DNA of 64,000 bases from an uncultured Actinomycetota bacterium (GTDB lineage: Bacteria; Actinomycetota; Actinomycetes; JADGOV01), in NCBI GenBank assembly GCA_963814355.1, contig CAWFCZ010000018.1, positions 201,692-265,691 of the forward strand, read 5' to 3'. The notes below the pieces were generated by a model that saw only the letters and a program-made list of their open reading frames with translations, searched no databases and was not told the DNA's origin. Every line of letters begins with the position of its first letter. Position 1 is the stretch's first letter. Positions 48,131 to 51,232 of the stretch are shown here, piece after piece. A program made the position numbers and the translations under genes.

Positions 48131-51100
48131 TCAGATCGGCTCACCTCGGCGCAATCGCGCGAGCAACTCGGCGGTCTCCGGCCCGGGTGGCACGCCGAGT
48201 TCGTCGCGGAGCAGGCCGATCAAGGTACGGCCGTGCCGGACCGCCAGACCCCGCTCGCCGCCCCGTGCGTAGCACCGGATGAGCTCCCGATGAGCCGTTT
48301 CCAGCAGCCCGTCGAAGGTGATTGCCCGCTGGTAGGTGTCGATGGCACCGGTCAGATCCGACCCCGCGGACTGCAACCGGCCGCAGGTGAGCAACGCCGA
48401 TGAATACTGCCGGCGCAGCTCCGCACGACGCACCTCAATCCAGGCCTCGCCCTCCACATCGGGCAGGAAATCGCCGCCGTACGCGGTCACCGCCGCGAGG
48501 AGGGCCGGCACGACGGATTCGCCGGTGGCGTCGGCAGCGGCGGCCAGAGCCACCTCGAACCGTTCGAGATCGTAGCTGTAGGCCAACGACCGGTTGAAGG
48601 CATAACGCCCACCGCGGTACACGATGCGGTCGGCCCGACCCACGGCGCGCCGCAACGCATACACGGTCGCGTGGAAGCTGTTGCGCAGCGAACCGGGGCT
48701 AGCCCAGGGCCACAACGCGGCGCCAACCTGCTCCTTGGTGCGGTCCGGGAACGCCAGTAGGTGGAAGAGCAACTCTTTCGGCTTGGCGTAGGCCCAGTCC
48801 GCCGGTTCGAGCGGCCGACCGTCCAGGTGCACCCGCGTGGCGCCCAACGCGGTGATATCCAGCGCTCCGAGCCGTGGCGGCGACACCGCCAGCGCGGGCG
48901 GCCGAGGGACCTCCGGCCGCTCGTCGGCGCGACCGACGTCGAGGAGGAGGCGGTCCAGGGATTCGGTCCTACCTGCCTGCTCCGCCCTGGCCATGGCCTC
49001 GGGATCGATGCGGCCACGGGCGGCGACGGCGGCGGCGGCGGCTCGTTCGACCGGCGGAACCGGCGCCCCGATCTCCTCCCGCATGGCCTGCGCGGCGGCG
49101 AAGAGGCGGACGGCGCGCACCGGCTCGCCGGTGGCCTCGGCGAGCGCGGCCAGTTCGGTCAATACGCTGGCGCAGCGCCACCGGTCGCCAAGGGCGCGAT
49201 GAACCTCCAGGCTCTCGCGCAGCCACCGCTGCGCCGCGGGTAGGTCCCCACGTGCTCGCGCGAGGAGGCCCAGCAGGTTGGCGCACCAGGCAATGCCTTC
49301 CCGGTGCCCCAGCTCCTTCGACATCTGGAGGCTGCGGCGCAGGAGGCCATCGGCCGCATCGCACTCGCCTCGGTAGTACTCGGTGGCGCCGAGATTCAGC
49401 AGCGACCACGCCAGGCCTTCCCGGTCCGCCGTCGGCTCGACAATGGCCAACGCCTGCCGGCACAGCGACCTCGCACGGTCGAAGTCGCCTTGCAGCCACG
49501 CCAGGAAGCCGAGGTAGTTCAGCGAGCGGGCGGTGCACGCATCGTCACCTAGGCTCCGGAACAGCGCGAGGCCGGCCTCGTGCAAACGCCGAGACGCCGC
49601 GTAGAGACCGCGTTCGCGTGCAACGCTGCCCAGCGACTGAAGCGCGGCGGCCTCGCCGGCTCGGTCACCGAGACGGCGATAGATGTGCAGGGCGGAGCTG
49701 AGATCGGCCGCGGCGTCGCCGTACATGCACTCGAGGTGGGCCAGCGTGCCAGCGGCCGTGAGCGCCTTTGCGCGGAGGCCATCTGGCGGGTCGACGGCAG
49801 CGCTCAGGGCGTGGCGCAACCACGATCGGCCCTCGGCGTAGTGCCCTCGCAGGTAGCAGAACCGCCAGCAGGCGGCGGCCAGTCGCAACCCGGCGTGCGG
49901 CTCACGGCTGGCCGCCGATGAGTACAGCGCGGACCGCAGGTTGGCTCGCTCGAGGTCGAGCACGTCGAGCCACTGCCGCGACTCGTTTGCGCACAACTGC
50001 CGTTCCGCGCGCTCGGCCAAGGCGACGAAATAGGCGACGTGCGCACCCTGGACAGCGTCCCGCTCCGGTGTCGACAGTTTGTCTTCGGCGTAGGTACGGA
50101 CGGTTTCCAGCAACCGGTAGCGCATCCGAGGCCCCCGCTCGGTCACGAGTACCAGCGACTTGTCCACCAGCCCGGACAGCAACTCCAGCGCCTCGTCCTG
50201 GTCCCGTCCCCCGACGACCTCCTCGGCCGCATCAAGGTCGAAGCCGCCGGCGAAGATGGACAGCCGGGCGAAGAACGTGCGTTCGGCTTCGGAGAGCAGG
50301 CTGTAGCTCCAGTCCATCGTGGCCTGCAAGCTGCGGTCCCGCTCCGGCCCGCGGCCGGGCGCGGACAAGAGCCGTACGCTGGCCTCCAGCCTGGTATTGA
50401 TCTGCTCGAGGGTCAGCATCCGCAACCGGGCGGCGGCAAGTTCGATGGCGAGCGGCACGCCGTCCAACCGACGGCAGAGCGCGACCAAGGCCGCAGCGTT
50501 CGCGGGCGTGACGGCGAAGCCGGGCTGGACGGCCCGAGCCCGGTCCAGGAGCAGGTCGACGGCGGGCACGCCCGGCAGGTCGGCGGCGGGCAGGCTCTCG
50601 TTGGGTACCTCCAGGAGCGGCACGGGGTACCCCACTTCGCCGTGCACACCCAGGAGCTGCCGGCTGGTGACCAGCACCCGGAGTTGCTCGTTCGCGGCGA
50701 GCAAGGTCTCGAGCAACCGGGCGACCGCGTCGCGCAGGTGCTCGCAGTTGTCCACGATGAGCAGCAGGTGGCCAGCGCGGATCCGCTCGAGAAGCCGGGG
50801 CAGCAGCGCACGCCCCGGCTCCTCCGGCACCCTCAGCGCCGCCGCCACTGTCTGGGGCAGCAGTCCGGGATCCGAGAGCGCCACGAGACTGACCCACACC
50901 ACCTCGCCACACGCCGACCCCCCGCCGGGCAGGGTGCTGCGTGCCAGTTCGACGGCGAGCCGGGTCTTGCCCACGCCACCAGGGCCGGTGAGCGTCACGC
51001 ACTGGTTCGCCGCGACCAACCGGGACGTTTCGGAGAGCTCCCGGTCGCGGCCGACGAACCGGGTGCGCGGCAGGGGAACGGTGTCCAAGCCGGGTACGAG

Positions 51101-51232
51101 CGGACGCTGCGGCCCCGCCGTGACTCGTCGCGGCACCAGCGCGGGCAGTACGGCGCCAGGGTCGTCGAGGGCGATATGGTCGTCGAGAAAGAGTGGCTTG
51201 GGCGGCATGTCTGCTCCGGGGCGTGACGGCAC
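48131..51232 (-). CDS. STAND-type regulator with permuted architecture: N-terminal NB-ARC/AAA ATPase, central TPR array, C-terminal SARP module (OmpR-type winged helix + BTAD)
   Basis: P-loop GPGGVGKTRLAVELA and Walker B LLIVDNCEH. Several TPR-like repeats (ALQSLGSVARERG, SLNYLGFLAWLQGDF ...). C-terminal wHTH (LGALDITALGATRVHLDGRPL...AKPKELLFHLL) is followed by BTAD (YDLERFEVALAAAAD...TYQRAITFDGLLETAHRELIRCYA). Confidence 0.75.
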   Translation of the reverse strand: MPSRPGADMPPKPLFLDDHIALDDPGAVLPALVPRRVTAGPQRPLVPGLDTVPLPRTRFVGRDRELSETSRLVAANQCVTLTGPGGVGKTRLAVELARSTLPGGGSACGEVVWVSLVALSDPGLLPQTVAAALRVPEEPGRALLPRLLERIRAGHLLLIVDNCEHLRDAVARLLETLLAANEQLRVLVTSRQLLGVHGEVGYPVPLLEVPNESLPAADLPGVPAVDLLLDRARAVQPGFAVTPANAAALVALCRRLDGVPLAIELAAARLRMLTLEQINTRLEASVRLLSAPGRGPERDRSLQATMDWSYSLLSEAERTFFARLSIFAGGFDLDAAEEVVGGRDQDEALELLSGLVDKSLVLVTERGPRMRYRLLETVRTYAEDKLSTPERDAVQGAHVAYFVALAERAERQLCANESRQWLDVLDLERANLRSALYSSAASREPHAGLRLAAACWRFCYLRGHYAEGRSWLRHALSAAVDPPDGLRAKALTAAGTLAHLECMYGDAAADLSSALHIYRRLGDRAGEAAALQSLGSVARERGLYAASRRLHEAGLALFRSLGDDACTARSLNYLGFLAWLQGDFDRARSLCRQALAIVEPTADREGLAWSLLNLGATEYYRGECDAADGLLRRSLQMSKELGHREGIAWCANLLGLLARARGDLPAAQRWLRESLEVHRALGDRWRCASVLTELAALAEATGEPVRAVRLFAAAQAMREEIGAPVPPVERAAAAAVAARGRIDPEAMARAEQAGRTESLDRLLLDVGRADERPEVPRPPALAVSPPRLGALDITALGATRVHLDGRPLEPADWAYAKPKELLFHLLAFPDRTKEQVGAALWPWASPGSLRNSFHATVYALRRAVGRADRIVYRGGRYAFNRSLAYSYDLERFEVALAAAADATGESVVPALLAAVTAYGGDFLPDVEGEAWIEVRRAELRRQYSSALLTCGRLQSAGSDLTGAIDTYQRAITFDGLLETAHRELIRCYARGGERGLAVRHGRTLIGLLRDELGVPPGPETAELLARLRRGEPI

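Follow-up and report, generated by a model that had tools for sequence, protein, structure and literature searches.

A STAND regulator of an uncultured Actinomycetota bacterium with its ATPase and TPR array ahead of a C-terminal SARP module

Work on regulators of the SARP family has dealt almost exclusively with N-terminal modules through which antibiotic gene clusters of Streptomyces are activated, and regulators of the MalT type, which couple ligand and ATP binding to multimerisation, carry their DNA-binding domain at the C-terminus. The present study concerns a gene in a stretch of 64,000 nucleotides (hereafter the window) from an uncultured Actinomycetota bacterium (assembly GCA_963814355.1, contig CAWFCZ010000018.1, positions 201,692 to 265,691), the product of which joins a STAND ATPase and a TPR array to a SARP module at its extreme C-terminus. 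The open reading frame (ORF) of this regulator lies at 48131..51232 on the minus strand and comprises 1033 codons plus a stop; residue numbers throughout follow this 1033-codon numbering, in which the probable Met start is residue 9 (M9).

The published SARP classes (small, medium, large, and SARP-LAL) are all defined with the SARP module at the N-terminus (PMC10972967, PMC12224297, 10.64898/2026.09.02.748808), in agreement with what an initial annotation of the window had said of the classical large AfsR/SARP regulators, and the position of the SARP module in the present protein, at residues 791-1033 of 1033, is unlike that in any of them. In AfsR, the ATPase core (NOD) and TPR inhibit the SARP module and ATP binding relieves the inhibition, and the SARP dimer sits on direct repeats that overlap the -35 element, where it touches sigma region 4, the beta flap, the beta-prime zinc-binding domain, as well as the alpha subunit's C-terminal domain (PMC10936776). 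In IniR, an ATPase at the N-terminus is followed by a MalT-like sensor and then by a DNA-binding domain at the C-terminus; the protein is ligand-responsive and couples ligand and ATP binding to multimerisation (PMC5760070).

The domain order of the regulator is an NB-ARC-like STAND ATPase (NOD), a TPR array, a linker, a winged helix, and a BTAD domain. The features that make up this order are given below with their window coordinates and the evidence for each; pLDDT is the predicted local distance difference test score of the AlphaFold2 model.

51077..51232, minus strand: N-terminal leader, residues 1-52, predicted to be disordered (pLDDT <50 for residues 1-46).
50081..51076, minus strand: NOD, residues 53-384 (Pfam, AlphaFold2, Foldseek, NOD profile).
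NOD subdomains: nucleotide-binding, residues 58-205; helical, residues 223-290; winged-helix, residues 297-384 (Pfam HTH_77, PF25872, in homologs).
50963..50986, minus strand: Walker A, GPGGVGKT, residues 83-90 (G83, G86, G88, and K89 invariant in 120 homologs).
50738..50764, minus strand: Walker B region, LLIVDNCEH, residues 157-165 (aligns to AfsR 'VLVLLDNARD').
50105..50122, minus strand: RYRLLE, residues 371-376, at the MHD/FHD nucleotide-sensor position (alignment to Apaf-1 and AfsR).
48944..50071, minus strand: TPR solenoid, a putative sensor, residues 388-763 (TPR_12 86 bits, TPR_10 63 bits; AlphaFold2; Foldseek).
48875..48937, minus strand: flexible linker from TPR to SARP, residues 766-786 (pLDDT <50).
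48572..48862, minus strand: OmpR-type winged helix-turn-helix, residues 791-887 (profile, AlphaFold2, Foldseek).
48134..48571, minus strand: BTAD, residues 888-1033 (PF03704 at 888-1028, 60 bits against a cutoff of 22.1).

The initial annotation had claimed this order, with the ATPase and TPR first and the winged helix and BTAD at the extreme C-terminus, and Pfam, profile, AlphaFold2, and Foldseek results all bear it out. The NOD, which follows the leader, carries the STAND motif VGRDRE (residues 60-65) and has the pattern of NB-ARC (AP-ATPase) STAND proteins, namely a P-loop with Walker A and Walker B, a helical domain with a GxP motif (G258 and P260 conserved), and a winged-helix domain; the Walker A, Walker B, and GxP motifs are invariant or nearly so in homologs. 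Pfam AAA_16 passed its cutoff at residues 58-188 (36.6 vs 32.6 bits) and NB-ARC stayed below its own (19.4 vs 23.5 bits), while in the repeat region TPR_12 and TPR_10 passed and TPR_MalT fell short (40.3 vs 45 bits). A full-length AlphaFold2 model, built with 48 homologs of the same layout, had a mean pLDDT of 86.9 and a predicted template modelling score of 0.64 and folded residues 388-763 into a helical-repeat solenoid. Foldseek matched the N-terminal body of the model to the archaeal STAND-TPR protein 6mfv, Apaf-1, CED-4, ZAR1, and the NRC resistosomes, and its TPR part to LGN/Pins.

The SARP module hangs on the flexible linker of about 20 residues at the C-terminus, where the AlphaFold2 model shows, at high pLDDT, a beta-sheet, three helices, and a beta-hairpin wing at residues 791-887, followed by an all-helical BTAD. 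A profile of 17 C-terminal modules aligned over its whole length with the AfsR SARP module (8hvr chain 44-286; 8k60 24-266; E 8e-20) and with that of EmbR (15-258; E 1e-14), and Foldseek superposed the C-terminus on AfsR SARP 8k60_I with a TM score of 0.77 and a root-mean-square deviation (rmsd) of 3.6 A over 253 columns, on 8hvr_I with a TM score of 0.74, and on EmbR 2fez/2ff4 with an rmsd of about 4.1-4.3 A over about 260 columns. Domain mapping thus placed the winged helix and BTAD at the C-terminus with SARP homology to both AfsR and EmbR, and the module is as conserved as the NOD.

AfsR is also the nearest solved relative of the ATPase. A single-sequence phmmer search did not link the regulator ATPase to the AfsR NOD, from which an ATPase-TPR core unrelated to AfsR had been suspected; a NOD-only profile of 18 genomic homologs overturned this suspicion, the best match in the PDB being AfsR 290-613 (E 2e-19) and the next Apaf-1 (8e-11). 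Since AfsR thus comes nearest among solved structures to the ATPase as well as to the SARP module, its order of SARP (24-266), NOD (290-613), and TPR can be set against the regulator order of NOD (53-384), TPR, and SARP (791-1033), and the latter is rotated, so that the inversion relative to AfsR described in the initial annotation holds. NCBIfam scans did not match the protein to an AfsR ortholog (equivalog NF053617, 56 bits vs a cutoff of 1430), to HaaT, a TPR protein of cyclophane ribosomally synthesised and post-translationally modified peptides (171 bits vs 1125, TPR region only), or to FxSxx_TPR of the FxSxx-COOH system (56.7 bits vs 300).

The recognition helix of the winged helix spans about residues 846-864, and W841 and R861 are invariant in the family. 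In AfsR, the conserved DNA contacts are Q48, W74, P79, T88, R94, and K95, and the base-specific contacts are R92 and T88 (PMC10936776). These AfsR residues and R87 were mapped onto the regulator through the HMMER alignment, with 8hvr chain numbering equal to native numbering plus 20, as follows.

AfsR W74 to W841: invariant in the family.
AfsR P79 to P846: kept, and largely conserved.
AfsR R94 to R861: invariant in the family.
AfsR K95 to R862: basic residue kept, and largely conserved.
AfsR Q48 to K817: changed.
AfsR R87 to H854: changed.
AfsR T88 (base-specific) to A855: changed here; T in the family consensus.
AfsR R92 (base-specific) to A859: changed.

The DNA-backbone contacts of AfsR (W74, P79, R94, and K95) are matched by W841, P846, R861, and R862, and with this scaffold kept, the SARP module of the regulator probably binds DNA.

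The gene itself reads as one coding sequence. The GC content of the window is 72%, and the regulator ORF is overlapped by many spurious ORFs; its own codon-position GC (GC1 0.76, GC2 0.53, GC3 0.85) has the profile of a coding sequence. An ATG at 51208 (M9) preceded by GGAG is kept in the alignment with relatives at 86% and 72% protein identity, in which the regulator has equal length, and the copy deposited at NCBI (P0001) has 1025 residues and is 100% identical. Since the ATG is conserved in both relatives, the true start is probably 51208, which gives a protein of 1025 residues.

The regulator is like AfsR in its output and like MalT, the LAL regulators, and IniR in its topology, and we think it likely that the gene encodes a single-polypeptide, NLR-like (STAND) transcription factor in which an N-terminal NOD-TPR switch governs a C-terminal SARP output. 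By analogy with AfsR and MalT/IniR, the NOD-TPR body would keep the SARP module inactive as long as no signal is present; a ligand or protein at the TPR, together with ATP at the NOD, would then bring about release or oligomerisation, and two SARP modules would come to lie side by side on tandem direct repeats near a -35 element and recruit RNA polymerase. The data show which domains are present and in what order, their conservation, and the wide distribution of the layout, whereas we only infer that the regulator is autoinhibited, depends on ATP, and acts as an activator, and likewise what kind of DNA site it would bind.

The nucleotide sensor is where the NOD departs from its relatives. In AfsR, Apaf-1, and plant NLRs, the OFF state with bound ADP is stabilised by a histidine of the MHD type. 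The AfsR sequence 'RYRFHDLVRLYA' and 'RYYLHD' of Apaf-1 align with 'RYRLLETVRTYA' of the regulator, so that RYRFHD of AfsR, with its FHD (LHD in Apaf-1), falls on L374-L375-E376; the His of MHD/FHD corresponds to Leu375 and the Asp to Glu376. Leu375 is invariant in 120 homologs, and the His is missing throughout the family that shares this ATPase-TPR core (hereafter the chassis), including its LuxR, cyclase, kinase, and N-terminal-SARP fusions. Mutation of the HD pair renders AfsR autoactive, according to a 2026 preprint (10.64898/2026.09.02.748808). With the MHD histidine missing, it is suggested that the OFF state of the regulator is stabilised otherwise than in AfsR.

The layout is widespread. 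Among the best 120 database homologs, about 55 share the NOD-TPR-SARP order with 40-50% identity in the SARP module, and about 20 carry an N-terminal SARP on the same ATPase-TPR core; in further homologs the partner domain is a C-terminal LuxR helix-turn-helix (HTH), which gives a protein of about 820 residues on the MalT/LAL/IniR plan, or else a class III cyclase at the N-terminus, a protein kinase, or an XRE HTH. The NOD-then-SARP order was present in 141 of the 265 relatives retrieved. A phmmer search with the C-terminal module against 1.84 billion representatives clustered at 50% identity gave 408 matches at E<=1e-30, and the module ends at the protein C-terminus in every one of the best 150 (150/150). 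In species-representative genomes, a query alignment of five module sequences found 207 stretches that encode the C-terminal module, none of them in a GTDB species representative at more than 51% module identity; all counts of distant loci below refer to the 80 best of the 207. These 80 loci come from Actinomycetota (Kribbella, Trebonia, Nucisporomicrobium, Rubrobacteraceae, Acidimicrobiales, Frankiaceae, and Mycobacteriales) and from Chloroflexota (Anaerolineae and Ktedonobacterales), Gemmatimonadota, and Dormibacterota. The ATPase, TPR, and SARP regions lie in one uninterrupted frame in about 62 of them, and the rest are mostly cut by contig ends or carry apparent frameshifts in metagenome-assembled genomes (MAGs) from long reads. 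The survey of databases for the same domain order therefore found it in several phyla, and because the layout recurs across databases and as a single frame in about 62 of 80 loci, the NOD-TPR-SARP gene fusion is real and old.

Many proteins of the same layout are named 'predicted ATPase/DNA-binding SARP family transcriptional activator' in IMG, and some are labelled 'BTAD domain-containing putative transcriptional regulator' at NCBI. One relative from Microlunatus elymi (P0043; QDP96010.1 / WP_143985976.1), a NOD-TPR-SARP protein of 1026 residues that is 41% identical over 96% of the query, bears the label 'gas vesicle protein GvpC' at NCBI and in UniRef, which is almost certainly a misannotation. 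Some Rubrobacteraceae genomes have paralogous NOD-TPR-SARP genes in close or tandem pairs: two such genes (L044 and L069) lie about 17 kb apart on contig CAWJAM010000009.1, and another locus (L005) holds paralogs at 5811-8741 and 9156-12326.

The initial annotation called the layout a circular permutation. In a neighbour-joining tree of SARP modules, the C-terminal modules formed one pure clade (41/41), with a mean identity of 45% within the C-terminal group, 34% within the N-terminal group, and 29% between the groups. In the neighbour-joining tree of the NOD-TPR core, most proteins with a C-terminal SARP fell together and several were interspersed with N-terminal-SARP, LuxR, and cyclase forms; both trees carry no support values. 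Two relatives (P0160, 1229 residues; P0234, 1368 residues) have a SARP at both ends, in the order SARP-NOD-TPR-SARP, and the two modules of each are 25-31% identical, while three others (P0004, P0006, and P0239; 1600-1775 residues) have a tandem NOD-TPR-NOD-TPR before the C-terminal SARP; the gene at 3534-8756 of locus L069 is also listed among these unusual both-ends-SARP and tandem-NOD relatives. The simplest reading is that a promiscuous chassis gained a distinct SARP lineage at its C-terminus long ago. Old domain shuffling explains the data better than a circular permutation of an AfsR gene, which is less likely, because the C-terminal modules form a separate, position-locked clade at about 29% identity to the N-terminal modules on the same chassis, and because the chassis is shared with LuxR, cyclase, kinase, and XRE domains. 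As a description of an evolutionary event, the term circular permutation is accordingly not upheld.

The neighbourhood of the regulator in the window consists of the following features.

44996-45107, plus strand: thiamine pyrophosphate (TPP) riboswitch (Rfam RF00059, 57.2 bits vs a gathering score of 54.3).
45101-46243, plus strand: thiO (predicted ORF).
46268-47245, plus strand: thiS-thiG.
47447-48055, plus strand: 202-residue protein with a signal-like N-terminus and of no known family, the convergent downstream neighbour.
51209..51343, no strand assigned: divergent intergenic region, 135 bp long, that separates the regulator from the DUF2231-Rieske gene.
51344-52204, plus strand: DUF2231-Rieske [2Fe-2S] membrane protein of 286 residues, the divergent upstream neighbour.
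52313-53239, plus strand: LysM-SLT transglycosylase.
53259-55265, plus strand: PASTA Ser/Thr kinase (four PASTA, PknB-like).
55269-56135, plus strand: xylose-isomerase-like TIM-barrel protein.

This neighbourhood is a housekeeping one. The riboswitch precedes thiO and thiS-thiG and overlaps both the predicted start of thiO (45101) and the predicted N-terminus of a divergent ORF at 43818-45077, so the starts of these two ORFs are probably mis-set. The flanks named in the initial annotation were confirmed as a membrane Rieske protein and a protein with a signal-like N-terminus, for which the proposed Tat export is putative. The relatives of 86% and 72% identity share exactly this gene order, and synteny is limited to relatives of at least 72%; the Rieske, LysM-SLT, PASTA kinase, and thi genes were absent as syntenic neighbours from all 80 distant loci, and the conserved neighbourhood was thus rejected as a guide to targets, the window neighbours being syntenic only in the 72% and 86% relatives. 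Regulation of neighbouring pigment or cell-wall genes, which had been suggested, is left unsupported by this restricted synteny and by the lack of direct repeats in the divergent region.

The 202-residue protein, with the N-terminus MSQHTLRRTGASVAAAAAAAAAL, is one of a family of hypothetical proteins that numbers more than 3000 members, about 215 residues in length (in Kitasatospora, Streptomyces, Acidimicrobiia, and others), and has no Pfam or NCBIfam domain. Family members stand next to the regulator in only three of the 80 distant loci (L002:4802-5449, L006:4873-5508, and L009:4933-5568), where they lie directly upstream on the same strand and overlap the regulator start, whereas the window copy is convergent and downstream; in all, the family is linked to the regulator in six genomes and in two arrangements. 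As a general partner the protein was rejected, given the size of the family and the four distant members checked, none of which (0/4) had such a regulator nearby, and it is a weak lead only, although it may possibly be a partner or target of the regulator.

Other neighbours recur in parts of the family. A gene for a signal-peptide protein of about 340 residues with 'GINDxGxVVGFY' repeats flanks the regulator in 37 of the 80 loci (among L015-L080), at a distance of 0-800 bp, be it on the same strand downstream, in divergent orientation upstream, or on both flanks; examples are L041:9408-10430 and a copy about 784 bp downstream of the regulator in L061. These neighbours are found mainly in Trebonia and Streptosporangiales-like genomes, and Pfam gave only a sub-threshold match to DUF3466; the gene is a possible regulon member. 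In 20 loci of a Trebonia/Streptosporangiales-like subclade, a SnoaL-like protein of about 154 residues follows the regulator. AfsR and EmbR are paired with Ser/Thr kinases (AfsK-AfsR and PknH-EmbR), and the LysM-SLT and PASTA kinase genes, found 1-2 kb away from the regulator with synteny in close relatives, recall these pairs; a kinase link was rejected, since a kinase is nearby in only one of the 80 distant loci.

The start of the Rieske gene was set at ATG 51344 by the same alignment with two relatives that placed the regulator start. Blocks of conserved sequence occur in the 135-bp region between the two genes, among them a TTGACT hexamer that lies 48 nt upstream of the regulator ATG. Programs detected no sigma-70-like promoters in this region, and by eye only the hexamer and imperfect palindromes were seen.

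Several of the results weigh against an NLR-like transcription factor with an AfsR-type output. Pfam Trans_reg_C (PF00486) gave no match, even when the C-terminal 266 residues were scanned alone, and a profile of the winged helix only matched AfsR weakly (E 0.02). The DNA site is not predictable from AfsR, because the base-specific T88 and R92 are A855 and A859 here. Leucine takes the place of the MHD histidine, so the switch may work differently from that of AfsR. The 135-bp divergent region yielded no direct repeats of the SARP type, no target gene is conserved across the 80 loci, and a search of the literature found no experimentally studied member of the family.

These points lend themselves to other explanations. 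The regulator could be a SARP-family protein whose main role would be repression or autoregulation at its own divergent promoter region and not the activation of other genes; negative-acting SARPs have been reported, e.g., Atr32 (PMC10972967), and a consensus TTGACT hexamer in the regulator promoter region would need no activator. The 135-bp region is well conserved among the three syntenic relatives, but this conservation rests on only three close sequences and the region has no direct repeats; moreover, the BTAD, which in AfsR contacts RNA polymerase for activation (PMC10936776), is fully retained. We regard this explanation as unlikely.

It is also doubtful, and we would not expect it, that the C-terminal module has lost DNA binding and that the TPR-like BTAD and a degenerate winged helix extend the TPR array for protein contacts, in a scaffold or chaperone-like STAND protein that would be no transcription factor. 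The missing Trans_reg_C match, the weak winged-helix-only profile, and the loss of the base-contacting residues of AfsR would fit such a protein, as would the BTAD, which supplies most of the sequence signal to AfsR and also matches designed TPR proteins. Against this stand the invariant W841 and R861 and the largely kept P846 and basic residue 862 at the backbone-contact positions, the confident model of residues 791-887 with its sheet, helices, and wing, the superposition of the whole module on the DNA-bound SARP of AfsR (TM 0.77), and a winged-helix part that is as conserved across phyla as the rest of the module.

It is very improbable that the protein belongs to a system of anti-phage defence or conflict of the NLR-like kind, with its STAND-TPR body as the sensor of an invader protein. 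The architecture of a STAND NTPase with TPR, the paralogs in some genomes (e.g., L044 and L069 on one contig), the existence of tandem-NOD forms, and weak sub-threshold Pfam matches to nSTAND1 and nSTAND3 all recall such systems; however, PADLOC returned only a generic TPR match at residues 541-634, the NOD matches no Avs or bNACHT model, and the effector is a transcription-activation module rather than a nuclease, protease, or pore-former. The context is moreover housekeeping (a thiamine operon and its TPP riboswitch, together with a PASTA kinase and a LysM-SLT protein), and the nearest solved relative is the transcription factor AfsR. Membership in anti-phage defence, having no PADLOC support, was rejected.

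An assembly or sequencing error that artificially fused an ATPase-TPR gene to a small SARP gene, which is a general possibility only (the reverse artefact, a gene split by frameshifts, does occur at some loci of long-read MAGs), has a negligible chance of being the explanation, given the uninterrupted arrangement, which 141 database proteins share with about 62 of the 80 independent genomes at species level, the same length in the relatives of 86% and 72% identity, the in-frame linker, and the coding-like codon-position GC across the whole ORF.

The transcription factor with an NLR-like switch and a C-terminal SARP output thus stands as one member of a larger group, and the claim that its layout is undescribed held in part. 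A literature search that covered openly accessible papers found nothing on a C-terminal SARP/BTAD carried by a STAND protein; on the other hand, the layout is abundant and automatically annotated, and in topology it follows the canonical plan of MalT, the LAL regulators, and IniR (PMC5760070). The architecture is novel only to a limited degree, given that domain shuffling is a known trait of STAND proteins and that a C-terminal DNA-binding domain is already present in MalT/LAL proteins. We tentatively propose, with somewhat more doubt than confidence, that NOD-TPR-SARP proteins could form an old, position-locked fifth SARP class that spans non-Streptomyces Actinomycetota, Chloroflexota, Gemmatimonadota, and Dormibacterota outside antibiotic clusters, in which an NLR-like switch without the MHD histidine would drive a C-terminal SARP and which, in at least two subclades, would be linked to genes for small secreted or cell-surface proteins. 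Were this so, SARP-type 'sigma adaptation' would be a general signalling output of bacteria and not a speciality of Streptomyces secondary metabolism. Genome-mining rules assume an N-terminal SARP, and one recent survey demands that the TPR lie downstream of the P-loop in such proteins; surveys built on the usual order would miss the lineage with the C-terminal SARP. The lineage can also serve as a natural test of SARP gating, namely whether an NLR-like NOD-TPR switch is able to work from either end, and it supplies a natural variant without the MHD histidine, a motif whose mutation makes AfsR autoactive. Its practical value is modest and lies in better annotation.

Set beside known systems, the NOD-TPR body finds its best overall structural match in 6mfv, the archaeal STAND protein with a TPR sensor (Foldseek E 8e-12, 710 columns), which is only 15% identical and is without a SARP output module. 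The SARP-LAL regulators (PimR, SanG, and FilR) unite, in a single polypeptide, a SARP and a P-loop ATPase of the LAL or cyclase type, which shows that the SARP module has been shuffled among STAND chassis; they differ in that their SARP is N-terminal and in that they are described in the review without the TPR array of the regulator (PMC10972967). EmbR of Mycobacterium tuberculosis shares the SARP-module fold, but has its SARP at the N-terminus, an FHA domain at the C-terminus, control by a Ser/Thr kinase, and neither NOD nor TPR; its make-up shows that a SARP module can couple to another regulatory domain. MalT of E. coli, the LAL family, and IniR (Rv0339c) have the same topology as the regulator: the STAND ATPase is N-terminal, the sensor is a helical repeat, and DNA is bound by a C-terminal domain (PMC5760070). 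Close chassis relatives (P0051-P0056; 44-49% identity in the NOD and 51-55% in the TPR) end in a LuxR HTH instead of a SARP; this output of the MalT/LAL/IniR proteins, a LuxR-type HTH of about 60 residues that Pfam scans (PF00196) did not find in the regulator, contrasts with its SARP module of about 245 residues. With AfsR and the other 'large SARPs' of Streptomyces (e.g., PolY and RslR3), the regulator has three modules in common, SARP, NB-ARC-type NOD, and TPR, and with AfsR also the Walker A, Walker B 'LDN', and GxP motifs and an expected output in which a SARP dimer on direct repeats would recruit RNA polymerase. The two SARP modules are only remotely related, at about 25% identity in the structural alignment and with different base-specific residues, and the regulator gene, by contrast, is not in a biosynthetic gene cluster. 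The regulator is therefore one member of a large uncharacterised lineage, already flagged by automatic annotation, that combines the output of AfsR with the topology of MalT and the LAL regulators.

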